This document shows positions 32,865 to 60,300 of a stretch of 64,000 nucleotides of DNA, piece after piece; the stretch's first letter is position 1; every line of letters starts with the position of its first letter. The stretch covers positions 495,037 to 559,036 of the forward strand of contig NMRA01000219.1 of the NCBI GenBank assembly GCA_002633005.1. Direction: 5' to 3'. The stretch comes from Phoronis australis (lineage: Eukaryota > Animalia > Phoronida). The translations under genes were made by a program, and so were the position numbers. The notes beneath the pieces are model-generated. The model saw nothing but the letters and a program-made list of their open reading frames with translations, made no database searches and was not told the DNA's origin.

Positions 32865-35800
32865 ATGGGCTGTGTACGCAGTAAACAACCTGAAGCGAAA
32901 TACCAACCAGACAAGACAGATGTGAGACCATGTACAGCACACCATATTTCAGTATCAAGCGAATTCTGTCCTGTAAGTGCGATTTCTTCATTAGATACGT
33001 GCAGTTATGAAGTAACTGACACTTTTTTTACTTGTGCCTTCCTCGCTGCAGCGAATCTCGACAGCACCGGGTCCCGTCTCGTATCCACATCGCATCTCTA
33101 ATTTCATAACTTGTTCAGAGAATTGTTCACGGCGGCGGGTTAAAAATTCTCGAGATCTCTGAGGGAACCTGAACTTTGTCGAGGCGGGGTAGGTGAAAAA
33201 ATGGACACGATTGGGAAGAGACAGCTTAAATTACCAGGGCCCCAAGACTCCTTACAGCCTAGAGCTCCGTGATATCTTAATCCAGCGCTTGCCCTTGGAT
33301 TATTCGCATTTAGGGCCATGTCGATAAAGTGGATCACTTTCATATATTTTCTTCGAAGACAAATTGGGGACACGGTGTAGCCAGAAATCCTATAACTTTT
33401 AGAAGAAAACCACATACAGCAGTGTCTTGTTGTGATGGCGGCTATCTAGTTTAATTAGGAAAATTTCCGTAGGGTAGATGATGGGGACAGTATTCCCACA
33501 CAATAGAGGCACATATCTTAAAGACACTTGTTCCCTTATTTTGACAGAAAGATATCACTAAAATAGGAATATCCTGGATGTATTTGTGTTTTAAATAAAC
33601 TGTCAGTTAAAATTGGCAAATTATATAATGTGAAAATTCAGAGGTGGCCATTTTGTTGACCACTAGAAAAATTAGTTTGAAAATTCTGAATTCAATTCTG
33701 GTCATTGCGAAAATATTTGATGACATGTTGGAAAAACATCATTTGAGAACAAGTTTAACTGAAAAGAAGTGGAAAAAGTATGGTTGTCTAATATTCATTC
33801 GGCTGTTGTCCCCAAATACTGGGTTTCATTAGCTGGCAATGGAACTTGGAATTCTATCAAGACTTTAGGGAACTCTTTTTGTCTTTAGTCTTGATCTGAA
33901 TTTAGACAATTGGCAAATTGTTAGGTCCATCATTCAAGAGTTGTAAGGTAACGCATGGAAACATTACCAGTCGCATAGATTTCACGAAATGAAACCAGAC
34001 CCCAGTTGTTTTAATTAAAGTTTAAACTTAATGGACATTCCTACGGTTAGAGCATTGTGGGATATAGATGTTCCTCGCCACCTGTTGGCTGGAAATCACA
34101 GTGGGTGAAGATTCCTTCGTTTCTCTGATTGGTGCCATTAAGAAACGCTTTATCTTCCCTGGTTTCATTTTGCTGGTAACAGCGATGTCTCACAATCCAT
34201 TTCAGATTTCCCACACACCTCTACCGTGAAAATGTCAATGTCATACTCGTCCTTGCCTTTACCTGTTTTATGGTTTTATGCAATTAATAACTTTAGGTGC
34301 GTTACGATACTTTTTATGAAACTTTAATCCATTACTGTTCATTCGAAAAATTTCATACTCTCATTTTGCATTCACGACTTGCATGAATGTATTGCTTCCA
34401 AGGAATGTTCATTTATTGCTCACCATAAGATCGCCAGCATCTCCTGCCATGTATTTGTACATTTAGTTCCAAGGTGACAAAAAACTCGACATATACCTGC
34501 ACGTACTGAGTTCGTCCTGCAGAGCCGTTATGATGACCTGTGCTGCGATTGAGTTGAAATACCAGGCCAAGATTATTGACTTGTTTAAAGGAGACCACCT
34601 GACGCCAGAATTTGTCAAGGTATTCCCAGCAATATGAAATTAATAACGAACGCTACCGGAAATGAAATCTCAACCATTCAGCTTTTTCCGAGAGCACTAT
34701 TTTCTCGAAGTAACCCTAAGTTCAATGTCGTAAGCGCTCTGCGCGCTACATTTACGGACATTTAGTTTTACTGCATCCTGATCTAATGGAAAGAACAAGG
34801 CAAAGTTGTTAACCGATTTACAATTTCATTTAAGTGGCGAGCAACCGAAAGTGAAGATGGTTATGTGTATGGGGTTTAAAGTTAGTGGTGAATTGNNNNN
34901 NNNNNNNNNNNNNNNNNCGGACAAACACGGCACCGAAGGAGTTTTTTCGCAATAAATAGGAGGACGTGACCCGTTAACACTCGCTGCCTCCTCCTTGTGG
35001 CTAGACCAGTGGTTATGCAGAAACATTCTGTAAACATCAATATCAAATTAAAGCAACAATTTCAGATTAACCAAATAAACCAGAAATGATTGACAATTAA
35101 GACTAAGAATGTAATTAAAGCAACTTTAAGTATCAATGTTCACGTGATCGTTAAGTAAGAGATTAGAACATTGTTTCGAAACGTCGCCATGACTGATAAT
35201 GAAAATATAAGTGCAAAGTTTGGTAATTCACAGTGAATTGTTTGTATGAGCTAGACAAAATAAAACGTCACATATATGGGAAATTGTATGGGGCCTGGTC
35301 GTTTTCAACTGTGTAGATTCGTGCTTATTCATTACAAATATTGATCGACTTAATGGGATAGATTCGCTGTATTGCCAAACTCATTTCACTCACGCATTGC
35401 TCGCAATAACAAGAATTGATTTAGACGTTATTGCTGTGAGAATTCATAAAACATTATGTTGCATAGAAAAGGTGCATTGTCTCTTGATGTGTATGTCAAT
35501 GCTCATTGCATGCACACCCGCACTACTAAAAGTTGCACTGACACGTCACACCTGGACAAAAGTCTTCATCGTGCGCCTGCAACTCATAATCACTTGATTC
35601 TATGCTTACATAATAACAATGATATTAATAATAAACGGTTTCAGCAATTCCTAGGGGTGGAATGATGTACAATTTTAGGAATTCGATTCGATTCTCCTTA
35701 GAGGAAATTCCATTGTTGTCGATTCGATTCTTCAATTGCCTGTCAAATTAATTCATTATTTCTCAAATCTAAGTAGATAACTTACCACTGCTACCAATTT

Positions 35801-37800
35801 TGCTGATAAAATTCTCCCAAACGAAAGATCCTGGGCTGTTCAATTATTCAATATTTAAATTACGCCCTTTAATAGATGCAACAGTCGCACACTTAACGGC
35901 AAAAATATTGGAACTAAGGATCAAATCGAAATGGACCTTTGAGTCGGCCGGCGTATCGGTATCGAAACTGGTCACTCCCGCAATGCGAATCGATTATGCT
36001 CGATTAACCGTCACACCCTTAGTTCGGCGTTGTTAAGGAAAGTTAGATATTGCTGACCAATGGCTTCTGTGTAGATGTGTAGTTTGTAGATAATTTGGTT
36101 CAGTTCGTCATGTTTAGATGAACCCGTGTCATACAATTCCTCTGGTGGACGATAATGGCTTTATTTTGTGGCAAAGGTAAGAAATTACATTGAAAGTCTC
36201 TCTCTTGCGGCAAATGAGGATCACCTTCGTTCCAGTACATTCAACTTATCCAAAGTCGTTATAAACAATGTTCTAACGTCTAAAGACAACTTTTTCACAA
36301 ACAGTTTACCTTAAATGCGTGGAATATCCGACTTTCGAAATAACCGCGCCGTTTTGAAATTCACTTTCTCGTCAGACGGCTCATCAGGGTAGAGTTCAAT
36401 AAAGCTAGAACCTCGATAGAAATGCACAATTACGCGCGAGATTACGCGAGATACTGCTAATGAGCTCTACCCCGGTGGGCTGGCGTTCAGCGATACCTAC
36501 AAATCCCATGAGAAGTTTCAACTCATTGGTATAAACGGCGTTTCAACATCTTTCCTGCTATCATGATGACCGAAGTACGGTAGAGGGATCACATTAATCA
36601 TGGACATTTTAGTATGCATATTTGTTTCTTTGCCTTGGACAATGTCTACATGCACTCAGTCGCCCGTTGACAGAACTCACTGACATGAGAAATTACGAAA
36701 GGCTGGCCTTGAAGCTGGATAGAGTCAATATATCTCGTGTATTCAACGAATCTCGTGAAAAATACCTAGAACTGAGAAGGCGAGGGTTTATTGCACTTTT
36801 TACTGAAAATAAGTCATTAAACCCCGCTTTGTTCGAAAAAGAGATAAATGGCACGATATGGGGTATTGTTGGAAAAAGACGCCCTTTGAGCCCTGAATCC
36901 GCTGAAGTTGTTTCTCTTTTCGCGTAGCCGAGCAATCATGGTGTACATCATGCGAAAGTACGCGCCAGAGAGCGCCATCTATCCGATGGATCTTGAGCAG
37001 AGATCTTCGGTGGACATGTGGTTGTATTATGATGTAGGAACTCTCTACAAAACAATCAGTGATTTTGTGGTGAGCATTATCATTTTTGGCCGAGTGTCGG
37101 CTAGTTTCACCACAATTGTACAAAAGTGAGTACTTGAAGTAACTTGTATTGTTGGAATCTGTTTGCTTGTGACAAGGTCTCTTCGATACATTTATATTGT
37201 CAAACTTCATTTACCGTCAAATTTCCAAATTCTAAACGTTTTGCCCTGTGTACGAGTCCTGGATAAGTTTGCAGACAATTGTGACCCTCTTGTGTCATTA
37301 GATGTAATTTCAAACGTCTTGTGTTGATTTTGCTTTCACAGTATCCCCAGTGGTTGCGAGGCTTGGCACCTGAAAACTACCAAGCTAAATTGGTGGAAGG
37401 ATGTCTCTCACTCATGGACACGTGTCTCCAGAATAAAACGTACCTCGTCGGCGAAACTCTTACTCTTGCCGACATCAGTACGTCCAGTTCGATATCATTT
37501 CTCCTCGTCCTGGAGGACTTTGATCTCCGAAAGTGGCGACATCTTTCGGTGTGGTGGGAAAGAATCAAGGCCCTGCCGTACTTCGATCGGGTCTACCGCA
37601 AGTTTTTCGCGTTTAGAAAAGCCAGACCACCACTACCTAAAGCCAAAAAAATATCACGAACGTCAATTGAAAAGGAGGTAATTTCCTCCAAAGTATCCAT
37701 CGTCGGATCTGTAGCTGAAGAACTAATTAAAACGGACACCAAGAACGCTCCCAGCTCGTCTGTGGGGATGTCCGAAAGCGTAGGATCAGACCCGGTGTAG
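32865..37800 (+). CDS. Glutathione S-transferase with MGCxxSK N-terminal leader and C-terminal extension, ~306 aa (GST-C)
   Basis: Exons 32865-32972 (MGCVRSKQ…FCP|GTAAGT), 34467-34619 (LDIYLHVLSSSCRAVMMTC…DHLTPEFVK), 36118-36176, 36928-37069 and 37342-37800, all phase-compatible. The GST core is certain; attachment of the first exon is inferred from phase and from the absence of an ATG ahead of the GST N-domain in the 34467 exon. Confidence 0.88.
34896..34917. other. Assembly gap (N run) in a GST-C intron
   Basis: Run of 22 N. Confidence 0.99.
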
Positions 37801-39700: not shown

Positions 39701-42700
39701 ATGGGAAACGCGTGCGCCAGCGAAAATAGTGTGCAGACGGCTGATCAGAGTAAAAGACCAGCAGATAAGCCCACGAATTCTAACAAGCCTCGGCAAAAGA
39801 GTGCCGAAAAAAAGCAGAAGAATGTGGAAAAGAACCAGACATCAAACAGCAAAGAATCTCCGAAGAATTTGGACCTTTACGTGTTTTCTGGGAGTTCAGC
39901 ATGCCGAGCGGTGATGATGACATGTGAAGCCGCGGGAATCAAATACAACAAGAAGGAAATCGACGTGCTCAAAAATGAGCACAAATCGGAGGAATTTCTT
40001 AAGGTAAGAAGATAATAAAAACAAATCCGGAGCTAAATGAGGTGATCCCGATCATTGCCTGCATACGAATAAAACAGAAAAGCAAACAGTGGTGAGGGGT
40101 AAGAATGGACGAAGGTATTGCAAATGAAATCTATCGGAATCAACTTTCACAGCGAATTAAGTCACTGAAATTGGCTGTGTTCATAAAAAAATTTAAAAAG
40201 AACGATATAAAAACTTTTGACTTCTATTTAGGTTGTTCTTTATTATTCCGTTATTGTTATTATTGACAATATTGGTATTTCTATTGGTATTGTTACTAAT
40301 GCTCTATTGCAGCACTGTCAACTACATTAAGATGATCAAAGACGTTAAAATACAAACATGTAATTTACGTTTCTACGGTTAATAATTGTACAAAAATGAT
40401 ATTAAACACTGGACATAGCAGAACAACAGGTACAATGGTTGAAAACTTCACAAAAGAACTTAACTCTTCCGTTCTTTTCAGATCAATCCTAATCACTGTT
40501 TGCCGACAATGAATGACAATGGATTCATTCTGACGGAAAGGTAGGTAGTTCTAATATTTAGTAATCAATATAACGTCAAGCCTGACATTTCTTGATTTTA
40601 GAGGACTGGTGCAATTCAAAGCTAAAGCCAGATTAAGGTTTCTTGGTGCCTTTGAACTATCAAAAGTAAGAGGGCCTTGGTAATTTGAGCGACTTACCGA
40701 GGGTGGCCATGAATATCGATCTTCGTCTCTTCCCCTGGTCCCCACGATTTCTATCCCCTGTCGCCAAAGCTTTCTAATTTCATGCCCCTAGTTTCCAAAA
40801 TTTCCCGCAATTAGCCATTTTTCAGTCCCGCAATCGACAAAAGTTTTGATGACTGTTGAGCTACGTGTCGGGCCCCCTATTTTGTGCGAGCCCCACGCCT
40901 AATTAGCTTGGATAATCTGGCACTGCAAGAGTGGTTGCCCTGAACCAGCATGGATTATATCGTTCACATTTGCAAAGTAATGAGCACTCTGAAGCTGTGC
41001 AAAGTTTGCCATAGGTCACCTACTAAGCCCTCATAGGATAAGTAACTGCGCCAAGTACACGAGACATTGTCAAATTTGCAAATACGTGTTTCATGAAAAG
41101 TGACTTTAAGACATAAGACAGAAATTTGGTCTTACTGAATAAATTGGCACATAACAACCTAAAAATAATTTATACTAATTGTCTGAGTATTTAGAAGTAA
41201 TTAATGACTACGTTCTCAGAGACTATGAGATTTGATTATATTTTCTGAAATAGTTATGAAGAGTGTAAGACCAAATTCTGACTTACGTTTTGGGTCACTT
41301 TTCATGCAACAGACACTTCTGATGGCCATGTTTGTGGGCAACAAGTTAAACTGGATGTTTTTAATAAATGTAAATTGATTTAATATTACAACTAGAACAA
41401 ATTGCAATAATGAACGAAAACCAGTTTCCTATTAATTAAATTTCACATTCGATTCAAATCTTTTTTCCAGTCGAGCCATCATGATATATCTGCTGGCTAA
41501 ATACGCGCCAAAGAGCGACTTGTATCCCTGTGATCTCCAAGAGAAGGCGATAGTTGACAAATGGCTGAACTGGGATTGTGGATCTTTCGCGCCCCAAGTT
41601 ATGAAACACGCAGTAAGTGATAAAGTTTTCATTTTCACTATTATTCATCAGTTATATTGAAGGAAGATAAGGCGGAAATTGAAATTTAATTTGTTTCCCT
41701 CCTTCGACCGACCATACCTTATGTGCGCGACAGTTATTTCAGTGCAGTCTCGCAAACGACTAGCAAACAGAATATTTTTTAAACGAAAGTCAAAAATATT
41801 TACGGTTAACGGTATTACAACCTCCAACCTCCATCGCGTTCGCAAGAGCAGGCATTGTTGTGTATTGAACCGCCGTTTAAAAGTAAATCATAAAAATATT
41901 CCCTACTAATACAGTGGCGAATTTAAAGGCGGGCCAAGGGGGCCGTGGCCCCGGCCCCCTAAAATTCTCCCAGATTCCATTTGGCAGTTCGGGAGTGCAA
42001 ATGTTTGACGGGCAAAATTCTGGCTAATACTTTGCCCTGCCGCCAGCCCCCCCAACTCAAAATTCTGGATTCGCCCATGATGTAATAGACACTACTAAAT
42101 TTTAGCTCAGTAGTGACTGAAAACTCAGTACTGATTTGTTTGCATTCTCAATACATAAGGCGTTACTACACTCTATACTAAGGGCGGTGTGACAGGTCCC
42201 TAACGGGAACAATGCTCTATAATCCTTAATAAATAGGTATTCATTAGCGTTTTCTTAAACGACAAAATGCCGATGACCGCCAACCGTTGGCACAATGGCA
42301 TCACAGACTCGTGTACACCTCTTGTTGTCACAAAAATGCTATCTCTTTTGTAGGCACCGATGCATTCGAAAGGTGAGAAAAAGCTCACGGAGGACATAAA
42401 GAAAGATGTCTGTCCTCTGGTGGAAGGCCTTGACAAGTACCTCAGCACACACGAGTACTTGGCTTGCAATAGGCTAACCATCGCAGACTTCTGCGTTCAT
42501 TCCACCGCCACTGTCCTTTGGCTTGTCGGCTACGATTTCAGTGTCCATGCCAACATCTTCACGTGGAAGAAAAAACTGTTTGCTCTTCCCTACTACAAGA
42601 AAGTCAACGAGGGATTGATGGACATGCGCAAGAAGCTAGAAATGATGAAGTCGGTGCCGAAACCGGAAAAGTTGTGCCTCTACGTGACACCCGGTAGCGC

Positions 42701-45700
42701 CCCCTGTCATGCATTGATGATGACATGTGCCCATGCTGGAATTGAATACGAGTGTAAAGAGATCGACTTGATGAATGGAGAACACAAAGGCGAAGAATAT
42801 ACTAAGGTTTGTACATGCCCGGAGTAAACGATGAATGCTCGAATTTTCAAACGGGGATGAGCCAATATGCAACTCAACAAATATCATTTTGTTGGAATGA
42901 ATCATGAAAAATGCTTGATCAAATAGGACTATGTCGCGAGAGCATTTGAGCCATCACTAATTTCATCTCCTCTTGTCGTTGGTCTTCCCTTGGTGGTTGG
43001 CATCATTTCTACTCTCCCCATCGTCAGATATTTCATCCAACAAACCCCTTTTTGTCCTAAGCCCTATTAATTAAATACTGCTGGAAACGCACAGTCAATT
43101 TCCGTTGACTGTGACAGACAGGAGCTGCACAATCATGTTATGTCAAATATGGTCTTTGTAAATGAAAGTCACTCAACTTCTTTATTGGATTTAACTTTAA
43201 ACCAACTTCTCGTATTGATAATAGAAATGTAATTGGTCCTCTCCCAGCTAAAGCTCTGTTAGATTATGATGGCATATCCATGAAAACAAAGAAATATTTA
43301 AGTCTGATTTTGTTAACTGATCCACTGAGTGTTATGTTGAAACAATCTATTTCTATCTAAGTCTTCACAGAAAACATGAAAATTGACGTGATTCCTGTGT
43401 TTAAAAAGAGGACCGTTGCTTTTACACAACTACAGGCCAACTTTGTTCTGTGTCCTGAGATATTTGTTTTAAGCCTTCTGGAAAGGTAATTTATAAACAG
43501 TTTTAATATCAGTTTCAAACTGATGGCTTGCTACATCGCCCAAAGTATGATTTCCGTGGGGGGCGCTCATGAATAAAATTGTTAAAGATGTGAAAAATCG
43601 TAATTACCTCTGGCTTTCTTATTTAGTCCCCCTAAAGGTTTTGTGCAATCACTTTCATCTTTTTGAGTAGCTATCTCATTAACAGTTCTCAGAGGATTCA
43701 GATAAACAATAAAATCATAGTTATCATTTCTGCAGGGCGTCCCACCGGGATTTATACAGGGTCCATTATTGTTTCCCATTTACGTGAATAATTTTGCAAA
43801 TTGTACCAATGCATTTGATTGTATTCAGCGTGCTGATGACACAACCATTATTAAAGTTATTCAAACCTCATTGTCTGGTAAAGGAATTTCAAGTCATTTC
43901 GAATGATCTCGGGAAAATTAAATGTTATTGGAATGGTTTTTATCACAACTAAGATAAATAACATGTTTTTTATGAATCTCAAAAAATTATTGTCGAGAAT
44001 TTAGATACTGAAGTAGTCGATTCTTGAACCTGGTTATAATTCTTCATGATGATTTATTGATGGCGCCATATATAAACAATTTGTAGAGAAAATAAGCAGA
44101 CTGTCGTTTTCCAAATAACATCAAACTCTTCGTACCCTTCATATTGAAACTTCAATGCATTCACTTCGATTTTCCAGATTAATCCTCAACAAAAAGTGCC
44201 AACAATGGATGACAATGGATTCATTTTGACGGAGAGGTAAGTGAATTTTAATTAAGAGCAGATTTGTGCTAGCATTGAAGTGTTCGCCTCGTTATACCAT
44301 TTCAACTACATAAATAATAAGACTGTTTTTAAAAGAGTTTGCGTGGCACGAGGCCAACCGCTTCAAAATGAATTTCTGTTAAGAAAGCAGGTTGCTATAG
44401 CTCTCTGGATGGCGATATATAAAACATTAAACAGCAAACAGAAATATAAAACGACCAGGGAATAAATTGCTGTTCCTATTTTCTGACTTAATCCATCGCC
44501 ACCGTGGCTCGAACATCAGGACTTTCAGAGAGTTTTATAACTATCTTTCGGCTGAAAACATGACTTTTTAGACTTTCTTGAGAAAAAATCAGTGCTGTAG
44601 TGGGGGGTAGGCGCACGTAGGCGCAGCCAACCACCTTTTGGTATTTGAACGTAAAGCCTACGCACCGTAACTTACGTTCAGTGTTCAAGGTTATGCGGTG
44701 GGCTCTGGGCGTCTACTTACCTCTAATTTTACCAATACAGCACTTGAAAAAATGAATTACAGTTGGTAAATAATCAATACAGTCGCGTGTTTAATGAAAC
44801 GTACATCAAGAAACATTTACTGCCTATGTGCAAGAAAAGCTAAGAAATTCACTATACGAAACCTACTGGCTACTATACGGAAACATTGCAATGAGAAGTC
44901 TACCGAGCCATGTGCCTACTCAAACATTCGATTAATATTTGCATTTCTCAGTAGGTACGTTTATTCTCATTTTATAGCCGCGCTATCCTCTCTTACCTGG
45001 TCTCCAAATATGCCCCACAAAGTCAACTTTATCCCTGCGACTATCAGAAGAAGGCACTCGTGGACAAATGGTTGTGTTACGACATGGGTACTCTATACCC
45101 AGCCCTGGGAGCTTACGTGGTAAGAACGAGAGAAAACTCAATCGGCTGAATTGTCTGTAATATACAGACAGTTGCAAATTAAACATTTTTTAAAATAATC
45201 CAATGCCCTATTAGGCCTACTTACCACTCAAATATTTTTGAAATTTGTATGGACTGTCTTGACAAAGAAAGTGCCGAAACTTTGTGACGTAGAAAACGAA
45301 CATAAATCGCGATATGTATTTAACTTTGAGCTTCACTGCAACACAGTGCCTTGATCTCGACCATATTGTTTTAAACAATCTCTTTAACTTCCAGTATCCT
45401 TTTGTCATGCGCAATGAGCCCCTGAGTGAGGAGAAGAAGGCTAAAGTCACAGCCGTGCTGGATTTCGTTAACTCGCATTTGGAAGGCAAGAAATGCCTTG
45501 TCGGAGACTCGGTCACCATCGCCGACATCTCCACGATAGCATCCGTTTCGATGCTTTACTTGGTTGGATTCGATCTGTCTCCGTGGAAGAACCTTCACGG
45601 CATGTTACAGTGCTTCAAAGAGCGTCCATATTTCAAGGAGGCTAACAGAGGACTCTTCAAAATAAGAGAATCCATTGTCGCAAGATCCGGCGACAGTTCC

Positions 45701-48700
45701 CAGACTGGTGTCGCCGCACCTGTTAACCACCAATCAGCTACGCACGGCGTGGCTGGTGTTCCTTCGGAAGGGCTCACACTGTACTGGACCGGCTTGAGCC
45801 AACCTTCGCGGGCGGTTTTTGCGACGCTGAAGCTTGGTGGTGTTGACTTCAAGTCTAAAATGGTTGACTTCCTAAGTGGTGAACACAAGCGCCCAGAATA
45901 CCTTAAGGTAAGATTGTTATGTCGGTCATATGTTTTACCTTAGTGCTTTTTCGTAGTCTAAATTGTTAGCAAGACTCGTTATTACTCTACACATACCATG
46001 TTCTCAACTATTTTATACCAATCATGTCACTTCTTTCAGGTAAATCCTTTGGGAAAAGTACCTACGCTTGTTGATGGCGATTTTTGTTTAACCGAAAGGT
46101 AAGGAAATATATGCAAAAGCATCATTCGATTTTTTGCGTGCCACCGTTAAAATCAAAACTAATTTTCTTGGTTTTAAGAAACTCTCAAATCAAAATACAA
46201 TTTATACATTTCGGGAAAGGGCACCTGAAGGAGCATTATGAACGGAATCAAGCGGTATCACGTGTTCGAAAAAATGTCCACAATGAATTAAGAAAGGAGA
46301 GCCCGGATGAAATCCAGAGAGGACATCTTTTAAAGTATTCACTCTTGTGTTGGATGTTGACTCTTTATTGTCGGCAGACTTTTTCCACATTTCTTCAAGT
46401 TTTCAAATTTAGCATTTACAATCTTTTTTGTTTCAGTCGCGCTATCATGAAGTACGTTATGAGCAAATTCTGTCCAGATCACAATCTTTATCCAGCCGAC
46501 CTACAAAGAAGAGCCGAGGTTGATAAATGGTTGAGCTACGATCAAGGAACGTTTTCAGACTGTCTCGGAAAGTACGCGGTAAGAACAACACAGTGCCATA
46601 CATTTGTACGAGGGACGGTGCGGGTATACGCATGCACGCAAGTATACGTACCATTCTGGGAAGTAGCTGTAATAATGACTTGGCATCTCCTGATTGCCTC
46701 AGCTATTAGCAGAAATATTTGATGGGGGGTGGGGTCAAAGGCAAAATTGTTGGAGGGGCTGAAATGATCAAGTGGCAACATGGCGGTACTTTGCAACGAT
46801 CCGGGAGGCAAACGTAATGAAAGGAATTCGACTATCACCGGGGAGGGGTTTTTGCAATGAACAGGGGCGCAATGACCCTGTTGTGTCTCACCCTAGACAC
46901 TCCAGTGGTTGATGCTGAGCAGACCTGATGAGCATACTCTCAAACTTGTCTGTGACATTTCGTTAGGACTATCTTTCAATCATCGAAACAAAAAATGACA
47001 AAGAGAAAAATAACCATCTTCGAAACTTGTAAAGTTGCGACTTCTTACAATACGGCGAATTCTCGATGAACTTGTAAGGTACAAAGTACGAATGGAACAA
47101 TAGGATTCTGTAATCATGCTGTTCCAATTGCCTCGTATATCATCGAGGCCCATGTTTCATATNCGTTATGAGCAAATTCTGTCCAGATCACAATCTTTAT
47201 CCAGCCGACCTACAAAGAAGAGCCGAGGTTGATAAATGGTTGAGCTACGATCAAGGAACGTTTTCAGACTGTCTCGGAAAGTACGCGGTAAGAACAACAC
47301 AGTGCCATACATTTGTACGAGGGACGGTGCGGGTATACGCATGCACGCAAATATACGTACCATTCTGGGAAGTAGCTGTAATAATGACTTGGCATCTCCT
47401 GATTGCCTCAGCTATTAGCAGAAATATTTGATGGGGGGTGGGGTCAAAGGCAAAATTGTTGGAGGGGCTGAAATGATCAAGTGGCAAACGTAATGAAAGG
47501 AATTCAACTATCACCGGGGAGGGGTTTTTGCAATGAACAGGGGCGCAATGACCCTGTTGTGTTTCACCCTAGACACTCTAGTGGTTGATGCTGAGCAGAC
47601 CTGATGAGCATACTCTCAAACTTGTCTGTGACATTTCGTTAGGACTATCTTTCAATCATCGAAATAAAAAATGACAAAGAGAAAAATAACCATCTTCGAA
47701 ACTTGTAAAGTTGCGACTTCTTACAATACGACGAATTCTCGATGAACTTGTAAGGTACAAAGTACGAATGGAACAATAGGATTCTGTAATCATGCTGTTC
47801 CAATTGCCTCGTATATCATCGAGGCCCATGTTTCATATACTGGCCAGAATACCAGCATTTGCCAATGCACGTGTTGTGGAACATCGAAATGTGTCAACCT
47901 TGAAGTCTCTTGAGCGGTATCATTATACATTTCCAGTATGGTGAATTCTTTTTGGGAGGAAAGCAAGAACCATCAACCTTGGAACAGATCAAGAAGACTC
48001 TGACGTTTGTGGACAACCATCTCGCCACCAACTGCTATGTCTGCGGAGACAACCTTACTCTTGCTGACATCAGCATGTATTCCAGCGTGATGCAGGTAGT
48101 ATGCTGCAAACTGGACGTGACCGGATACAAGCATCTCTGCACGTGGATGGACAAGGTGAAGAAAGAGCTGTCTAAATGTGACGAATTTGCCGAAGGCGTG
48201 AAATCTCTGGAAGCCTTTCACAATAACTTGCTGGGACAGAGGACGTCGAGCGGACCAGTTCTTTACATGGACTGGATCAGTCCTAACGCTCGCCCCGTAT
48301 ACATCGCTATGAAGCTGTCTGGAAAGGACTTCACCACTAAACAGATCAGTCTGATGAAGGGAGAGCACAAGGGAGCGGACTACCTTGCAGTGAGTATCAT
48401 GTAGTAGTTGCCTGTAGCTGAGTGTCAGAACGTTCCAGAATATTTAAGAAATCCGGCGTTTCGGTCATTTATGACGACAGGTTTTTACACTCGAAAGCTT
48501 TATGACTATTTTCTGAAATTACTGGTAGAGGGCAATAATTACGTGATGATTGAACTTAAATCCAAAAGGATAACAAGAGCAACGCAGAGCGTTGAAATGC
48601 GCCCACAATTGCACCGTACACGGTATCCTTCTAGGGTTGTTTATTGGTACCATAAAGTGGCCAGTAGAGGGCATATATGTAGTATGTTGTACTTTGCAAA

Positions 48701-51486
48701 ATGGAAAGGCATGGTCAATGTCTCCTCAATAGGCTAGGGGCAAAATTTGAGTGATCTTCATAATACAAGCACATACTATACATCAGTTGCTTAAAGCACC
48801 ACAGAAACATAGAATTAAAAACAAATTTACCAACATACGAGATTAGCACAGCATTAGAATGCCAGAAACAAATTTCTACTTGGAACTTTTCCTTCATAGT
48901 CACGAAGTAACACAAAGTATACACCTGAAGACCTATGAAAATACAGAGGTCAATGTAAAATACTAAAATTGCCACTAGAGGCATACCGGTAGTCAGAATC
49001 ATCCTAAAGTCGTCATCGTCCGTTGTCAACATCACATAAATACACTTGCTAAATTTAGTAAAGATCCTGCAAACGGTTTGGGAGATACAGCCATGGGCGC
49101 AAAAAAAACTGCCACTAGGAGGCGCCACAGTAATCAAAGTCATGGGAAATTCAGCGTCAACCGTCCTCTTCATAGTAAGAACATACATGCCAATTTTCAC
49201 AATCATACTTAGAGCGGTTTGGTTGATAGAGGGGTGGACGCCAAAAAACAGACTCAAAAACAGTAAAAATGGCCACTGGGTGTCGCAAACTAGGTCGAAT
49301 CCATCCGAAAACGGGAGGATAGCGTCATCGCACTAATAGGTGCCTACATACCAAATTTCATGAAAATCCGTTCAGGACTTTTGAAGATACAAAGGTAAGT
49401 GTAAAAAACTAAAATTGCCACTAGGGGGCACACCGGTAGTCGGATCCGTCCGAAAGTTCGCACATGCCGTCCCATTCATGAATGGAACATACGTGCCAAA
49501 TTTCATGAACGTATGTCAAAGGGTTTTGGAGATAAAGCAGCGGACGCCGGACGGACGCCTCCCGGACGGACGGACGGACGGAGATGACGGCATAATGCGT
49601 CCACATATAAATATGTGGGCGCATAAAAACGCATTGGTAATTAGCAATTAACATGAGACGCGACCAGCATACACTGTATCGTGACTTCTTCACTTGTTTT
49701 TTCCAGATTAATCCCACCGGCCAAGTTCCGGCTCTCACTGACGGCGACTTGAATCTAAGCGAAAGGTGAGAACAAGCAAACTAGAGGACAAATTGGAGAT
49801 CGTTCTGTAGACCTAGTTTCGCAAAATTGCGCGATTAAAAAGCGAGTTTTTCGCAGCAAGTAGCCCGGGGACTTACTAGTGGCTAACACTTGTGGTCTAA
49901 GGAAGTCAACCCAGGTCTTTTTCAAAAATGCGATCGCACAGGACCGTAATGTTGGAATTATCTCTCGAAACGTACGCACATATAATGAAGATATATAGAC
50001 GACGACTACAATATCCAGACAGTTGCTACTGAAGCTATTAAGTGATCACGTATTTCGCAAGAAATGCATAGCGATATCTCGTGAGGTCGACTGGCAGGAT
50101 TTTGCTTTTCTCGCAAAAAATTGCTCCCATGAGTTGATGTAAAGTTCAGGCCATAGACATCTTAATACTAAGACACTAGTTGGTTTCTAATACAGCCTAT
50201 CATGATTCTGGTGAGCAACTTCGAAATGATGGGACTGTTCTTTATATCTTGTTTACCTCTTGTTCTTTGGAAGAGTGTGAATGTCTCACATTCGTAGGTT
50301 ATATGATAAGGTATACGAAGCAGGTACACTAGACACACACTTTTCAATAGAGCTTTCGAGCCATGTATAGGCTACCGGAGTACACTACCTACTTTCAATT
50401 TATTTCAGTCGGGCTATATTGGCATATTTCTTGAGCAAATACGCACCAGACTGTGATCTGTATCCAAGCGACCTGCAGAAGCGGGCTTTGGTGGACCAAT
50501 GGCTGAGTTATGATCAGAGCACGTGGAACTCGTCGTGTGCAGGCATTACGGTAAGTTGCGGCGTGTTGGGAGTTCGTACATACAGAATTTGATGAAAACG
50601 GGCAAGGAAGTTTTCATGGGTAAGACTTGAACAACGGTGTCACTTAAACATAACCTTTTTACCCTGAGTGACCATCGTATACAAGACAGAGTATCTAATT
50701 TTTTGGAAGTTTCTCATAACCGGCGACCCAAGCTAATCGCGCTAAGTCATGCCTTCATCCTCGACGCGCAGAACAAAAGAAAATTCGAGCGTTTGTTCTA
50801 TAAAATAAGTGCGCGAATGCAGAACACGTTGGTCTTTGTTAGCAAGGGCTTTCTTGGAACGGACCGAGTGAACTGCCAACTCCGGACTCAGACATACTAC
50901 TGAATCGCGAAAAATTCACCACATACTACAATACTATGGCGGGGTAAAAAAATTTACAAGACAGAATTGCAGGTCACTCACTGTTCGAAGTGCAAAACAA
51001 AAACAACTGGCGCTTCAATAACTTATTAATGAAATAAACTTTATAAAGGACTCTATTTAAGCAATTAAACTTTCACGGTCCCTCATTTTTGTTCTATCCC
51101 AGACCATTAAGGTTCTACGGACTAAATAAAGCGTCATAACGACTGATGATTTATTCAGTGATTCTGTGTTTACTTAATTCCAGTTTCCAAAGCTATTCTT
51201 GAACAAGGAGCCAGAGGCCGAAAAGGAGGAGGCGTTTCAGAAAAGCCTGAAGTTTGTCGACGGTCACATGGACGGCAAGTCGTTCGTCTGCGGAGACGAC
51301 ATGACGATTGCTGACCTCACCATGTACACGATGCTCTCTCAACTGATGGTGACTGGTTACGACATCAGTTCCTACAAAAACGTCAGCGCCTGGTATGCGC
51401 GAATGGACGAGGTAGCGAAGAAATTTGAGGAGATAACCGATGCTATGGAGAAGTTGAAAGAGTTCTATGAAAGTAAACAGAAGTAA
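39701..51486 (+). CDS. Four-domain tandem glutathione S-transferase polyprotein, ~942 aa, with a myristoylation-type basic leader (GST-D)
   Basis: 13 coding exons: 39701-40003, 40482-40540, 41471-41612, 42354-42806, 44178-44236, 44978-45119, 45395-45907, 46040-46098, 46437-46578, 47937-48389, 49707-49765, 50409-50550, 51184-51486. All are GT-AG and in frame. Exons 4, 7 and 10 each encode a GST C-domain running without a stop into the next GST N-domain. AATAAA at ~51975. Confidence 0.93.
41912..42079. mobile_element. Short MITE (hAT-like CAGTGGCG terminus) in a GST-D intron
   Basis: CAGTGGCGAATTT … GGATTCGCCCATG imperfect TIRs; homologous to 109-177. Confidence 0.55.
43380..43860 (+). pseudogene. 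Degenerate L2/CR1-type LINE reverse transcriptase fragment
   Basis: Recognisable decayed motifs: VIPVFKK, NYRP, GVPPGFIQGPLLFPIYVN (compare GVPQGSILGPLLFLIYVND) and ADDT. Confidence 0.75.
46455..47838. repeat. Direct duplication of ~700 bp joined by N, including most of GST-D exon 9 (probable haplotype overlap)
   Basis: 46455-47162 versus 47164-47838; N at 47163. The second copy lacks the acceptor and first codons and has a 33-bp deletion. Confidence 0.85.
48572..49629 (-). mobile_element. Non-autonomous Helentron (HINE/DINE-1-like) element
   Basis: SubTIR ATGCGCCCACA (48597) / TGTGGGCGCAT (49614). Partial inverted repeat at 49595-49606 forms a terminal hairpin. Stem-loop CAACGC-AGA-GCGTTG at 48580. 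(GGAC)n (GTCC on the minus strand) microsatellite at 49541-49582. A-rich ends. Confidence 0.75.
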
Positions 51487-52766
51487 GAACGTACTTCGCC
51501 AGATTCATGTGGAACCACCGAGAGCACGCAAAAACAGATTATGCTCAACCAGCCTCTCGTTCAGTAACGCTAGGAACTCGCTAAAAAGCAAGACTTCGCG
51601 AGATTACGTGAGATATTGTCGTGTATTTTAAATGAGAACACGTGACGTTGACTAGGTTTTAGCTAGGTCCTAGCGTAGGTCCTAGCGTCTACTGAACGCA
51701 CGCCAGGTTTTTCGCTCCTGTTGAGTAGCATACCGCGTGGTGTCGATTGTAAGAAATTGTGACCACATTCATAATATATACCAAAAATGCTTCTCCAAAG
51801 ATTTTTCGCCAATTTATTTTTTTTTTGTGTACAGTGGTCAACTAATTGTAGTGTTACTTATTCAAACCGCTATATTTTTTAAAACTGTTTATTCTGTATT
51901 CTATTTAATATGAAGATAATTGCGCTTTTGTAACTGGCATCATGCTGTATAACTAGGGGCCCAAATATTTCATAAATAAACAAGATCAAATATAAATTGC
52001 TTGTTTATCTCGGTTACTTAAACACTCACAAATACTACAAGACACCATAACTTATGCACATATACATTAACGATCCTGTCTTCTGAAGAACCCACAGCTT
52101 GTAAAGTACAAACTAAACAATAATCATACATCTGACACCAAAGGTTGACATATTTAATGATTGCATATCAACAGTGACCAGTACATCACAATATTAATTA
52201 GTTCACAAATAACAAAACAAAGTGCTACAGTAATGGGTTGGAAAGCCGCCAGAAATTGCGCAGACATAGATGATGGGCTTAATACAACTCAGGGCAGTTA
52301 GGGTAGTTGTTCCTTAAGTAGCACACAACATGGCCCAGGAGTGATTTTTTAAAAAATCATTTACAGTAAAATGATTCAGCTTTTAAAAAACGGAAAAATG
52401 GAAAATAGTATCCTGCAAAATAAATAGAGAAATACTGTAACCTTAGAAGTTACAAAAGCACCATTGGAAAGCAGCGTTTGAAGCTTAGTGACATCCCACT
52501 GGAGGACACGCAAAGGTCTTTTTATAGTTTTTCAAAGTGCAGCCCTGTTTACTGAATTCTGAGATGTGCTCTAGAAATCCCCAAAAGTTATATTTTGCAG
52601 CACCGACTCCACTTGGTCTTTCAAATAAAGTTTCCCAGTTCTGTTCGTTTGCTTTCCATCAGAAAAAACAACTTCTGCCTTATGCCACTTTTGGTTATGA
52701 AATTGGTCTCAAATTATTCTTTCATCAAATAAGAGGTAATTTCAGAGCTTTAAAAGGTCTTGAAAA

Positions 52767-52879
52767 CAGACTCTACAAGCTGGCTCATCACAGTGGTTCA
52801 TTTGATGAGCAAAGCACGGTCTCAGACTCTACAAGTTGGCTCATCACAGTGGTTCAATTGATGAGCAAAGCATGGTCTC
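52767..52879. repeat. Two-copy ~56-bp tandem duplication
   Basis: CAGACTCTACAAG(C/T)TGGCTCATCACAGTGGTTCA(T/A)TTGATGAGCAAAGCA(C/T)GGTCT twice. Confidence 0.85.
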
Positions 52880-54345
52880 AAGACATAATGAACTGTCAGT
52901 TTCTTGGTAAAACCAGAAATCACTTCTCATCAGAGCAATGAAAAAACTGAGACCAGTTTTATAGCAGGAAATGATCTGCATGAAAAGTTCACTTCATGGA
53001 CAGAACGCGGGTTAATAATAACTTTAAAATGAATTTCCCAAACATTTTAAACAAATAATGGACAACATTTCTCTTGCAACTATCTTTTTAGCACGCCCAG
53101 TACAAGTGTTGAGAAACCATGAACAGTTGAATAAAATGAACTGTTAATTATTACAAATAATCACTTAGCGATGTTTTGCTACAAAGATATAAGTATCACT
53201 AGACACTCAAGGTCTAGTTGTCAAACTCAACTTCAAACATGAAACAAAAAGTTTAGTAGTGAATTTAATCCTTGAACAAAAAGTTTAGTAATTAATTTAA
53301 TCCTTTTAAGATTATGTAGGATCCAAGAAGAATTTGGCAAACTTTGGAACATCATAGCTCAGAAACAACTAATTGGACTCGTGCAAAACTTTCAGATACT
53401 AATGCTTTATGGAACGTTCTTCAAAATGCTGCAAAGAATTGCTTTAAATTGACTCAGATTTGCTTGATGAACTATAACACATAGCACTTTGACGAGTTTC
53501 ACTAAAAAATGAGAAGTTGCATAAAATGAAAACAAAATGAACATTTATCGCAAATGAAATTTGATTACGTTATCGATACCATTGTTTTGCTATGATTGTA
53601 CCTTTCTTTGGTTGTTAAATTTTACTGAAGACACGTGGACACAGAACCCAATCAATGGCAGACTGATATAAAGTCAAAAACTAAATTCTAACTTCTTTTT
53701 ATCATTGAGTTAAATTCTATAGCTTTGTAAATATTTAGTTGAATGCACTGCCTTCCCAACAAGTTCCTATTACATAACCTTAATTTGACTTTGATTTGGA
53801 TATGACAATGAAAAGAGGAGACTGAATAGTAAACATCATCAAGTAACCTTCTGAAATTTCCATTAAATGCATCCATGCAATGTGTATTGTATAAATATGA
53901 CTTAATGTTACATAACACAAATTCACAGGCTCCTTAACAACATTTCAATGACAATCAACTATACAGTTATGCAATTTTGATAAAAAATACAATCTATTGC
54001 AGAAATGGCACATATTTGAACTAAGAAGTCATTAACAACAAAGCACTAGGAAATTACAGCAATTTTTTGAACAGCATTGACATGTTCATTCAATAATAGA
54101 CCAAACTGTAAGAAACTGTATAGATGGAAACTTTAAATAACTGACCCACACTTTTACTTGTATTCTTATTCAAATGATCCGTATATCATGATTTCCGAGA
54201 CCTGAATAGGTTTCAATTTTTACTGCTTTCCGAGACCTGAGCAAGTTTTATAATTTTTGGGGCAAAGACAAAAATTGCCTTTAAATTGCAGGGACCACAG
54301 CCAGCTCTAACAGATATCCAAGAGCAGAATACCTGCTGTGTGACC

Positions 54346-57300
54346 TCATTTCTGTCTTAGGTCAACCAAAGTGATTCTGGAGGATGTGTCGATTTTTGCA
54401 TGGCAAGCCTCCTGTAAGAACATTGGCAGAACAAGGTGAAACAAAAAATACATACAGTACATGTCGAAAGTAATCGAACAAAAAGTTTCCTAGTCATGGC
54501 AGCCAGACATTCTGATAGTAAATTACACTTGCACACACCCATCTTGAGAGAGAATTTCCAGGTTATTTAGTGTGATTATTTTCGTAAAATACATCTCAAC
54601 TACATCAATGTCAGATTGGCTGCAAGATTAAACCTGCTCAGGCAATGCTCCAACTCTTTTTGGGCCAATAGTTAATTTGGCGAACTACAATCCACAAACA
54701 ACAATTAAACTTTGTTTCTTTAAATTCATAAATTCTCACAACACACTGCCTCACGCCATTAAAGACGTTTGTGTTGCAACGAAAATACCAACCTACAAGT
54801 AATAAAATAAAGTTCAACTCACATCAAACAAAGCTGGGTCCTTGGGATGAGGATGGAAGCCTGCTAGGCGACAGTTGGCTATGTAATCCAACCCGTGATC
54901 AGGTGTGAGGTAGAAGATTCCAGTTCTAAAAGACCGAATAAGCCAAGTGCAACAACGAATCCAGACACTTTCTTCAACTTTTAGTTTAAGTGACTGTCTT
55001 AATTCAGGAATTCTCTAAAGACAAGACTCGTCAGAAAAAAAAAGAAAATTACAAATTTCTGCGCAACACATTTTTCCTTGTGAGAGCATTAGCACAAACT
55101 TATACACTGACATTTCACTTCTCATCTGACTAATAAAAAAGTTAAATCAACTTTGATAAAGGCACTCTTAATCAAAAGTTACTTTTTTTTCAAAAGGCTC
55201 AATAATAAAATAAACATTGATGTAACACAGTTTCACTGCAACTCTTTCAAGCACCCAATGCTACCTACTGAAAGTCCTGAAAATTGTCGCAATGTAAAGA
55301 CAACCGGGTAGTAGTAACAAATGCCGACAACTTACTCATCAAACTTTGGTGAGTAAACGATAGCGATTGCCTCAGGCATCATGAGTTGATAGGAGCAATG
55401 TGTGTGCAGATCCACGCTGGAGAGAAAGGCTGTTTGAGAAGGATGAGTCTGTAACAGTGAGACAAGAACTACAGGACAACAGTTCATGAACAAGCAGTTA
55501 AAAGACATCTCTTTACTCATTTCAGGATAAAAGCTCCTAAAAACCGAGTACTAAGGGGGCATTTCTTCCTTCATTACAGAATAACAGTTTATGGAAACGC
55601 AGTTAAGACATTCATTTTTCATTTCAGAATAAAAGCTCATGCAAATGGAGTATTAATGAAGCATTCTTTCTTTCATTTGAGGATGACAGTTTGTGAAAAA
55701 GTAGTATAAAAGGGGCACTTCTCGTACTCAATCACTTAACATCATAACGATAACTTTAACAAAATGGTGCAAAATTTTTCTTTGCCACAATGGAAATTGG
55801 TTTCTGTCAAATACAGGAATCGAAAGACTATTGTGACTAACCCAACAGAGCTCAACTTTCAAAGGATTGATCACCTCTGTCAAAACTGAATGCTTTGTAT
55901 GGACATTGAAATACATTGATCATGGTATGAAAAGGCGCGAGGCATACTGAACCTGACACAGAAGCTGACTTAAACACAATGCACAAAATAATTGCTTACC
56001 AGAAACTTTGACTTCGTCTTGGCTTGTTAACAAGACTGTAGATTCTACGCTTACTTATTAGTGAATATTTGTCCTACCAGAAATTGCCCTCTTTGTTACT
56101 ATTGGTTATCAGGCCTGTTAATTCTGTTACACAAACTGACCATTATACCATGATGGTTGATAGTACTGGTCACAAGCTCCATTTGTTTAGGTCATTTCAA
56201 GTTATTGACTGACCAGCACTGCTTGAGGCTGCTAATTCCATTACACTGCTCTCACAGTTGGAAAATGGGGGATAGTAATGGTTTCGTCATGTGTTTTGTC
56301 TTTTTAATGCACTTTGGGCCAAATCCTGCAAACAACTCACATGAATCCAGCCTAGTGTGATCAAGTCGTGAGCATCTTGGTAGTCAAATAGGGCCTCTTC
56401 GCCCTGTGTTGTACAGGAGTCAGACGTGCCGCTCTGCTTAGGAATCAAAAGGTGCGTGATCTTGAATGCACCCCGAGACTACAAGAAATAAGTTGACGGT
56501 AACATGACTTTGTGGAGAAATCGTGAATGCACCACAAGTCTATTGAAGATGAGTCATAAGTCCATCACCTCATGTGCCGTGTTGTATTGTGATCGTGCAA
56601 GCAACAAAAAGTTGAAGATACGAGAAACGCCATTTTCAAGGAGCATATGATAGCTGCATTTAACTAGACTGTACCACTTGAATACATGAAGCAATACATA
56701 TCTGATCATGACTACAGAGTAAAAGTTACGTAAATAAATCAAATGCAATTTGACGTCACACCAGGGATGTGTTTCCTAACGCATGACACTTGCAAGACAA
56801 TTACGGCACAAAACCTCGACTTAGATAAAGAAAAAGCAAGTTTCTTAAAGCTTTCTACCAAAATTCCTTCCAACATACTAGCCTCTCTAACCAATCCCTT
56901 CAGTGGCGGCCATTTTGCTAGACATGTACAGAAGCAAAGTAATGTATAAAAATTATTTGCAAAACACTGGCCTTTCACTCGAGTGATCCCGCCAAACTCA
57001 TAACAAACTCAATCAACAGAATGCACTCCACAAATCTAGTACAAAGACACACGTCAAAAGGTTTTGAATCCTTAAAGCTGCAACACATGCTGGGACATGC
57101 AGCATTCAACCCATCTAGTGAGTGGTCAGGGAACCACCTCTCCCTATCTAGGCAACAGTGAAACTGCTTTTGGAGTATCAATTTTTGCATATGGTCCAAC
57201 CTAACTGACCGAGTCCGTCCAAAATGTTTTTTTCCATTCTACCAGTCTCAAAATCAAGGACTGTGGAATACATTGAAGCAATTTTATGTTGGTAAGACAT

Positions 57301-60300
57301 TCACTTCAAAAGATTGTCTCTGAACAATGAAAATTGCAGAACAGATGATAAGAGTCTAAATTTACCAATTTCCCAGATAGTATTCCACAAGTTTCCACGT
57401 TCCTGCGAGTGTTATCCTGTGCAACCTTGATGAACTGCTCGACTAGGTCAATGGGTACCATTATATCCTTCAGACCAAATCGATTTGTACTGGTTGTATG
57501 TCCCACACTAGTGAAGTGATCTAAAGATGGCTTAGTACCACGGTCAGGTACAACCGGGCTGGCACTGAAATGTAAAATAGTTATTAACTTCACTGACAAG
57601 CACAAACCAAGGCAGAATTGACGAAAGGTTTAAGTTCGGGCCACAGTGAAAGACAACAATCTAAAAGCTCTTGGTTGGAGATACCTTCGGAAATCTTTGC
57701 CCTTCGAACAATCATCAATATTTCATTGTCGTAATCATTGTCGTAATTGTTCCCTGATTTAGCACACAATATGGTCGACAAGTGAAATTGTACTTTGTCA
57801 AATTTCTTCACAAAAAAAAGATTCAAAAAAAATTTCAATCTATTACTAGCATAATTTGTATTGTGTAGATTTCATAAAAATGGCATTTGTTGAAATTCCC
57901 ATTATTTGTAGCATAGAAATAAACCTTTGGAAAATGGAAAAAATGGGAATTTTGGCAACAATTTTGTGTTAAATAAGTGGAGAATTACTGTTCCATAAGT
58001 ACTAACTTACTTTTAGTATTATCACCATTTCTAGAACTTGATTTTCTTAAAAACAAACATTTAGTGTTGTTACAAAACTGATTTCACATTCGAAAGAATT
58101 CCATAACTTCTAATACTGTTCATGCAAAATCACACTTCAAAGCAGTTTACAAGGTCATTCACAATTTTGACAGCTTTATAACCTTTCAAAACAATATGGA
58201 CAGTTGTCAGGTCTCCACAGAACTTCTTACCTATCAACGGCCAGGCCTCCACCACCTATAGTGGGCCCTAGGACATTTTTCTTTAAATCACGACTAGGTA
58301 TAACAGGTGGCAACACGGGTTTCCCATAAGCACTTGGCACAACACTGTCATACGACGGTGGGGGAGGAAGATTGTCAGAGTCTAGTGCAGGAGCCGATGG
58401 CTGTGGTGTTGGCACATCCATAGGAACCTGCGGAATCACGTCCCCTGGAGCAACCAGTGGCACAGGGGAGACAATGCCAGCCTCGTTATTGTTGTCCGTA
58501 GGCACGATTTTGTTCAAAGCACCATTTGTGTCCCCACCTGCCATAGCACGCTTTCTCTCCTGCTCCTGAAGAATCGCCAACTTCCGTTGTTCTTCAACAC
58601 GCCGTTCTTCTTCCTCCTTCAGTCTCTGAGTTTCCAGTTCCTTTTGTCGCTCAGCTTCCTGCCTTGCCAACTCCTCTAAACGTTTTCTCTGATGAAACAG
58701 ACGACTGTACTACAATGCTGTTTCGAAACATCCATGGGAGATACCAAAGGCTTCAAATAATGTGGCAAGTAGATTCAAGGCAAGTATTCAGAACATGGCA
58801 ATTTTAAAGTAATTTTACAATCACAAAATATAAAATTAGTCTACGTCTGGGTATCTATGATCAGAAACAGCATCAGAAATAATATTCTGCAGAAAATAAT
58901 CAAAATGTATAATGTAAACAAACCTCAAACCTATCTGACTGCATTGGGTCCCCACCACTATTCAATTTTAGGTGAAATTTTCTAGAAAAGTTACATTAAC
59001 AGAACTGATGTTTACTGCAATTTGAATGCCAGGTTCTACCAAAACAAGACACACCTCAACCTCTTGTCTTTTTGATTCTTCCATGGTATATATTTCAATC
59101 AACTTCTTTTTGATAGTGTCTGCTTTGTCGAAAGCCTCCATGCATTTCTGTAAGACAATGCAAACCATGTTGCACGCACAGATCAAAATGGAAAATGACT
59201 CATGACAATATGCGTACCATACGTAAGTCATATTAGTTAAAGTACACGACATAAGACGCGTGTATCACAACAAATGAAATAAGTTTCTGTATTGTAAAAC
59301 TATAAAACAACAAAAATATGCACTAATCTAAATAACTGAAGCCCTAACGACGATTTTCCACCATAGAAGACTTTTACTACCAATCATTGGCGTATGCAGA
59401 ATGTCGTAAGAAGGGCTAACCACAATCTTCTAAGGAAAATGTCTGCGGAAGCCCTACATTTTGATATTTTTGGTCGTGTCCACAAAATTCGTCTACCCAG
59501 ACAGACCACTTATTCACAATCACAGGAAAAAAATTAATAAAATGCTCTGTATCACAGTTTGGACCAATCTGGTCAACTTCCTTCAAAGTTTGGTGCAAGG
59601 AAGTGTAGATAAGACAATAAAAGTGTACAGCAATAGTTTTATCAAAGACATTCTGACATGAACCTGAAAACAGTCAATAGACTTGCCAAGGCACGATAAT
59701 GTGATCACTAGTGACACTGTCACACCCAGAATTCTTACCGGTCTAAAACTTACTACAGACCCAATGGACATTAGAGACACTGATGTGAATACGTAAATCT
59801 TAAACCAGTGCGGAAATGAAGATCACAAAATTTTTAAGTCTGGTCTGCATGCCACCAGTTGGCCAGAAGGATGTCCATGGTCTGATTGGATTTCTGTATT
59901 CGACCGGTGGCCCCATTGCCTCAGTGGGCTAGTGTCTGCATGGTTAGCAGAAGGTCCCGGGTTCGAGTCCCCGTTGGGGCACAAAATTTTCCTTACTTAT
60001 ATTCATTACAACAGGTGGCGTGCAAACCAGACTTGAAAATATTTGAGCTAGAAACACTTGTAATAACCCGAAAACCGCCTGGACGGAGTCACATTCAATA
60101 CGTGGTGTTGGGTCAGAGTGGAACGTTTCCGCCTATCATCAAATCGTTTCAACAAGATTTTAGGACGAGGCTTGGTATGACAAGACCCACGACAGGCATG
60201 AGCACAAAGGGAAGATTCACAGCAAAAAAACTCAGCCAGGTGACTGGCCAGGATGTATTCCAGTGACAGCCATGACTTGCCAGAATGTATTCTTGTGACG

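Follow-up and report, generated by a model that had tools for sequence, protein, structure and literature searches.

The window, the whole 64,000-nt stretch of Phoronis australis DNA that was analysed, carries a 13-exon gene at 39701–51486 on its plus strand. The 2829 nt of coding sequence specify 942 amino acids and the stop codon, without internal stops, and an in-frame stop precedes the ATG. All 12 introns are of the GT..AG type, and the computed mass of the chain is 106 kDa. The gene forms the end of a tandem cluster, 3′ of three single-unit GST paralogues (G1–G3) on the same strand. It is real, expressed and old. The features of the cluster are as follows.

3144–6893, plus strand: G1, single-unit GST paralogue with 59- and 142-nt exons; first coding exon not found
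9207–12157, plus strand: G2, complete single-unit GST paralogue of 213 aa; intron positions as in the four-unit gene
34479–37800, plus strand: G3, single-unit GST paralogue ending in a stop of its own, 1900 nt ahead of the four-unit gene; start exon not found
39701–40003, plus strand: exon 1, leader plus beta1-alpha1-beta2 of unit 1 with Ser65; from the spliced ORF and sense RNA depth
39701–39868, plus strand: N-terminal leader (aa 1–56), Met-Gly start and Cys5, then a polar tether
40482–40540, plus strand: exon 2, 59 nt, cis-Pro loop and ES of unit 1
41471–41612, plus strand: exon 3, 142 nt, unit 1
42354–42806, plus strand: exon 4, C-half of unit 1, 12-aa linker (42636–42671), start of unit 2 (Ser283)
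44178–44236, plus strand: exon 5, 59 nt, unit 2
44978–45119, plus strand: exon 6, 142 nt, unit 2
45395–45907, plus strand: exon 7, C-half of unit 2, 31-aa linker (45680–45772), start of unit 3 (Ser521)
46040–46098, plus strand: exon 8, 59 nt, unit 3
46437–46578, plus strand: exon 9, 142 nt, unit 3
47164–47838, no strand assigned: assembly echo, a copy (~98.6–99.7%) of 46455–47162 joined by an N; partial exon 9 without acceptor, outside the gene
47937–48389, plus strand: exon 10, C-half of unit 3, 11-aa linker (48228–48260), start of unit 4 (Ser739); joint 48389 to 49707 seen in RNA
49707–49765, plus strand: exon 11, 59 nt, unit 4
50409–50550, plus strand: exon 12, 142 nt, unit 4
51184–51486, plus strand: exon 13, C-half of unit 4 and stop codon

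Besides the cluster, a STAMBP/AMSH-like gene lies at about 52000–62315 on the minus strand; it is expressed on the strand opposite the GST gene, its 3′ end is seen in the RNA, and its best matches are in Lineus, Tubulanus, Capitella and molluscs, which places the host probably among the lophotrochozoans. STAMBP and a related GST entry are recorded on equally long contigs both in Lineus and in Tubulanus, which suggests that they share one scaffold there. A weak tRNA-like match (59910–59981, plus strand, 32.3 bits), possibly SINE-derived, falls within the STAMBP span. Between G2 and G3, at 29789–30232 on the plus strand, a 147-aa open frame without a Pfam match follows an acceptor-like site.

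Four diverged units in one chain

Canonical cytosolic GSTs have one unit of ~25 kDa per chain and work as dimers, a layout from which this 942-aa chain with its four units departs. When 23 GST units from the databases, and no window sequence, were made into a profile, it matched the chain four times (iE 1e-62 to 2e-72), at aa 57–262, 275–481, 513–721 and 733–940, covering profile positions 3–208, 3–210, 3–212 and 5–213 of 216. These near-full-length matches confirm the single ORF of about 942 aa with four full GST units described in the initial annotation, which had also expected Pfam GST_N plus GST_C to be detected four times. GST_C was over the cut-off in all four C-half exons. GST_N was listed for two of the four exon pieces, slightly below the cut-off in both, because the domain is split by introns; the pieces contain just the first ~45 of its 76 positions. 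By profile and Pfam GST_C, each unit has the layout of the superfamily, an N-terminal thioredoxin-like domain followed by an all-helical C-domain. Every unit also has intron phases 0,2,0, with a 59-nt exon and then a 142-nt exon.

The motifs claimed for each unit were found in all four: a Ser at the catalytic position, where helix 1 begins (Ser65, 283, 521 and 739), which lines up with its counterpart in 1PN9, 2IL3 and Delta GSTs of the databases; the cis-Pro (Pro109, 327, 565 and 783); the Glu-Ser pair that binds GSH (ES; 120, 338, 576 and 794); and the N-cap Thr (Thr210, 427, 665 and 883). In unit 2, His replaces the Arg which the other units carry after the catalytic motif. The best PDB sequence matches of the exon pieces are Delta/Epsilon/Theta GSTs, namely Apis AmGSTD1 (7RHP), Anopheles 1PN9, 2IL3 and human theta 1LJR. 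These have the fold, Ser, cis-Pro, ES and N-cap in common with the units; four units and an acylation-type leader set the present gene apart. Judged by sequence, the units are Ser-type, Delta/Epsilon/Theta-like members of the cytosolic GST superfamily. Identity to the best matches listed, from arthropods and elsewhere in the databases, is 32–45%, the rule for GST classes being more than 40%, and in trees the units fall outside the insect Delta clade. Their chemistry is most likely ordinary, like that of four ordinary Ser-type GSTs tied together.

Pairwise identity between the units is 26.8–44.1%, the pairs U1/U2 and U3/U4 being most alike. The C-halves are 14–30% identical. The best-kept part is the 142-nt exon, which encodes the dimer-interface segment (22–26 of 47 residues identical in all six pairs); here the third codon positions match at 30–45%, compared with 61–67% at positions 1 and 2. 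BLAST comparison of the 12 introns gave no mutual match at E ≤ 1e-3. Since third positions are near saturation and the introns are unrelated, the units are old duplicates and not an assembly echo, as had been proposed; the separate echo of exon 9 had gone unmentioned. Of the covalent multi-specificity array under selection put forward in the initial annotation, the single covalent four-unit frame and purifying selection on the units both stood, and different substrates per unit are likely because the C-halves are so dissimilar.

Continuity of the frame and its transcription

The unit junctions lie within exons 4, 7 and 10 and contain no stop, as the initial annotation had stated. They are 33–93 nt long, whereas separate paralogues of this cluster are 1900 and 2313 nt apart. 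From the stop frequency in the introns (0.0565 per triplet), simple arithmetic puts the probability that three gaps of this kind would stay open and in frame by chance at about 0.002. The linkers measure 12, 31 and 11 aa (aa 263–274, 482–512 and 722–732). The middle one is rich in G/S/A/P/V, and the first contains two Met residues and a basic stretch; linkers 2 and 3 have no Met, and units 3 and 4 have lost the start Met. A scan of the three junction exons revealed neither AATAAA/ATTAAA nor an acceptor-like site.

Four separate genes merged by assembly or annotation would give the same picture, and echoes joined by an N do occur in this assembly, at 2326, 31341 and 47163; many multi-GST models in the databases also resemble merges. 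The junctions, however, are intra-exonic and away from the Ns, DNA contigs run across all three of them (42002–42697 with no differences, 44715–46903 and 47580–48598), and the junction exons are covered by RNA from another study. We consider the chance of such a merger negligible. The DNA contig run may be from the source sample of the assembly and hence not independent of it. A DNA contig that runs over 44715–46903 and continues at 47580–48598 lacks the exon 9 echo. Each of the three single-N joins is flanked by 97–99% duplicated sequence; the N-joined echo is thus systematic and could mimic exon duplication elsewhere in the genome.

Transcription was followed in three stranded RNA runs, all from one study other than that of the DNA, with ~18–19% of each run sampled. 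In each of the 13 exon bins free of repeats, sense depth summed over the runs was 13–49 per base of exon; in four pure-intron bins the mean was 0, 0, 0 and 0.58. Exons 5 and 13 fall in repeat-swamped bins. Depth was low (0.1–5.4 in run X5) and fairly even over the exons, with a rise of about two-fold toward the 3′ end. Sense-strand transcription thus extends over all four units. Intron 10 (48389 to 49707) was spliced at GT..AG in 36 reads (3+12+21). One continuous mRNA across the gene is inferred, because this intron is the only one of the 12 joints to appear among the 15 of 369 splice joints listed. Of 258 substitutions and 17 indels, the 36 and 12 listed come mostly from repeats; the three listed substitutions in repeat-free exon bins are all missense and none is a stop. 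The initial annotation had raised the possibility of stop codons at the junctions in raw reads: around junction 3 (flanks 48227 and 48297, 11–20 reads per run in two runs), the RNA changes are missense only. Intron 10 also holds a very high-copy repeat (48570–49630) whose reads, at a depth above 1000, are predominantly antisense to the GST gene. Smaller repeats lie at about 41950, 44600 and 51550.

The frame might instead be cut as a polyprotein, or shorter transcripts might give rise to one- or two-unit enzymes. The basic stretch and the two Met residues of linker 1 could serve such a scheme, as could the many AATAAA/ATTAAA hexamers within introns and the rising depth at the 3′ end. That rise, however, is usual for poly(A) libraries, and transcripts ending in introns would cut units in mid-fold, because no intron lies at any junction. 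Among the sites listed, at this low RNA depth, there was none where many molecules start or end, and units 3 and 4 would have to begin without a Met. Such processing appears improbable, and we prefer a single chain of all four units.

Origin, and multi-unit GSTs in the databases

Shared introns and the trees point to an origin by duplication and in-frame fusion. The four-unit gene likely arose in this way within the tandem GST cluster, in an order of events that is not fixed. U1 and U2 are a sister pair in the first tree (96/89), as are U3 and U4 (100/98), and both pairs were kept in four of four trees. The four units and G3 were monophyletic (96/83) in the first of the four trees only. A five-unit gene including G3 was ruled out, as G3 has its own stop and an AT-rich tail. 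The G3 protein also has a low-complexity C-terminal tail of ~50 aa. Expansion of one fused cassette as the sole history was rejected too: copying predicts that the N-start segments of U2–U4 are closest, and those of U1/U2 were found to be so (26 of 47).

To look for relatives, a junction profile was run against 1.84 billion representatives, clustered at 50%, which could hide a four-unit relative. There were 2479 matches at E ≤ 0.001. Among the best 150 of these, 108 entries had one full unit, 25 had two, one had three and none had four; 15 had no full unit, and one was without a profile match. As scores add over units, a four-unit relative would be expected high in the ranking. We found no orthologue among the best 150 of 2479 matches, because the top identity to any unit was 46.5%. 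A word-indexed search with exon 10 against longer proteins gave 0 of 204 candidates, and a metagenome scan returned 80 loci, none with two GST units in one ORF. Atlas matches were generic GST clusters at 0.88–0.90, with one arthropod cluster of 433 aa and 88 members among them, and serve as leads only. In open papers, screened by title and the start of the abstract, no four-unit GST was found. The PDB, searched with a two-unit profile, returned single-unit chains of at most 305 aa in all 60 of 65 matches listed.

A characterised two-unit GST is Leishmania TDR1 (PDB 4AGS), reported to be a trimer of two-domain subunits in a non-canonical assembly and tabulated among the Cys-type GSTs (PMC4138524). 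By this account it resembles the present protein in having more than one GST unit per polypeptide, and differs as a two-unit, Cys-type protein of a trypanosomatid from a four-unit, Ser-type one of an animal. We found no evidence that the two fusions are homologous by descent. Plant GST2N likewise repeats part of a GST; it reportedly has the N-terminal thioredoxin domain twice and lacks a C-terminal domain (PMC13495499), whereas whole units are repeated here.

Uncharacterised multi-unit GSTs are closer to the Phoronis gene, with tandem units in one frame; several are transcript-assembled and several start with Met-Gly-Cys. The entries examined have up to three full units, compared with four here.

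Diplonema japonicum, P0080: two units
Flectonema neradi, P0081: three units
P0068: three near-identical units
Further multi-unit entries: Diplonema papillatum P0213; Arcella P0119; short-contig entries P0078, P0085 and P0099

Because they occupy separate tree branches, these are independent fusions. The transcript-derived diplonemid proteins, the short-contig entries and the amoeba entry look like genuine multi-unit GSTs. The diplonemid entries P0080, P0081 and P0213, together with P0068, are two- and three-unit chains, two of them from transcript assemblies. Other long multi-GST entries, from Timema (P0006), Ooceraea (P0008/P0009), ants (P0012–14) and Tubulanus (P0067), come from tandem clusters and, judged by their protein sequences, are probably merged gene models: they keep the start Met of the next gene (8/8), have truncated units, or belong to clusters with other annotated lengths. 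In the Phoronis gene, unlike these, the junctions are intra-exonic. Long multi-GST entries in the databases are therefore not all annotation errors, and an intra-exonic junction together with a lost start Met offers a test for sorting them.

The uniqueness implied by the initial annotation does not extend to multi-unit chains as such, given TDR1 and the 26 of the best 150 entries with two or three full units; the two- and three-unit forms recur. What was not found elsewhere is the number of four, the highest full-unit count among the entries compared here.

Recurrence of tandem GST fusions across unrelated lineages could also be taken to mean that the fusion is a tolerated accident, with selection on one or two active units while the rest bind ligands or play a structural role. 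The changed motif residue in unit 2 would fit, as would the failure to find an orthologue. Against this, Ser, cis-Pro, ES and N-cap have been kept in all four units in spite of near-saturated third positions, and we regard the idea as very improbable.

The leader and the pairing of the units

The leader (aa 1–56) has Gly2 and Cys5, followed by a basic polar tether with 12 K/R and 6 D/E. The initial annotation mentions neither this leader nor the upstream single-unit paralogues. The leader fits the PROSITE-type myristoylation pattern. Myristoylation of Gly2 and palmitoylation of Cys5 are predicted on these grounds, and membrane anchoring via the leader is reasonably probable. With Ala6 and Ser7, the leader lacks the Ser/Thr6 of the classical consensus MGxxxS/T. 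This residue is reportedly not essential and is absent from HK1S, for which dual acylation at Gly2/Cys5 has been shown experimentally and drives membrane location (PMC4736023). Both proteins have Gly2/Cys5 and both lack Ser/Thr6.

The mechanism to which we give somewhat better than even credence is a single 106-kDa four-unit chain of duplication and fusion origin, N-terminally acylated at the membrane, with GST dimers formed between chains. A Ser-type GST unit activates GSH at its Ser and requires a dimer partner. By family knowledge, four intact Ser-type units translated as one 106-kDa enzyme would each bind GSH via Ser, cis-Pro and ES, and conjugate electrophiles or reduce peroxides. The predicted fatty-acylated N-terminus would tether the chain to the membrane. 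The weakest step is the pairing of units in trans, from chain to chain. It would be favoured because the linkers between units 1 and 2 and between units 3 and 4 are short, and the 31-aa middle linker may act as a hinge joining two two-unit modules. In a model of exon 10, seven residues separate the last helix of unit 3 from beta1 of unit 4 (pLDDT 63.5, three sequences); in a fold search with this model Delta GSTs ranked top and nothing reached E ≤ 0.001. As a proxy, a two-unit chain from the databases, whose units are 5 residues apart, was predicted at pLDDT 85 and pTM 0.54, that is, with no confident packing of its halves. A fold search with the proxy model returned single-unit chains only, TDR1 being absent among the 50 matches listed. 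The pairing geometry is weakly suggested by this proxy, which is another chain than the one studied here.

The 942-aa chain could also be a monomer, soluble or anchored, with two intrachain pseudo-dimers, such as U1:U2 with U3:U4, or U2:U3 with U1:U4. Such heterodimers would suit the even number of units, the likeness of the sisters U1/U2 and U3/U4 and the conservation of the dimer-interface segment, and the middle linker is probably sufficient for a U2:U3 pair. The other two linkers, with 11–12 aa, leave only ~7 free residues, the short-linker proxy did not pack confidently, and two-unit TDR1 is reportedly a trimer of non-canonical assembly (PMC4138524). We therefore hold intrachain pairing to be unlikely and retain dimers between chains.

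An expressed chain of four diverged units raises the question of how an enzyme that must dimerise manages with subunits joined head to tail; at issue is whether tethering fixes heterodimer pairs or drives higher assembly. If neighbouring units leave the four dimer-forming faces of each chain unsatisfied, the protein might self-assemble into ladders or lattices of GST dimers anchored at the membrane; this would amount to a tetravalent scaffold for detoxification, with four specificities and with its pairs fixed as homo- or heterodimers. This is a speculative proposal to which we assign a low probability; if true, it would be a new quaternary form of the GST fold in animals.

A start of Met-Gly-Cys with a polar extension was also seen in 7 of the 95 single GST matches that start with Met, including a Lineus longissimus GST. 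In a quick tree, three of the Met-Gly-Cys singles stood beside U1/U2 (SH-aLRT 90), a position not recovered in a careful tree. The acylation motif was not enriched in multi-unit chains (3/23 compared with 7/97, p = 0.40), where the entries were sorted crudely by Met at the junction, which mis-sorts some. Such Met-Gly-Cys leaders, on single and multi-unit GSTs alike, may mark an overlooked group of lipid-anchored ‘cytosolic’ GSTs. Met-Gly with a nearby Cys and a polar extension is present in entries P0090, P0106, P0114, P0115, P0141, P0186 and P0196, and likewise in P0030, P0068, P0078, P0080, P0081, P0093 and P0213.
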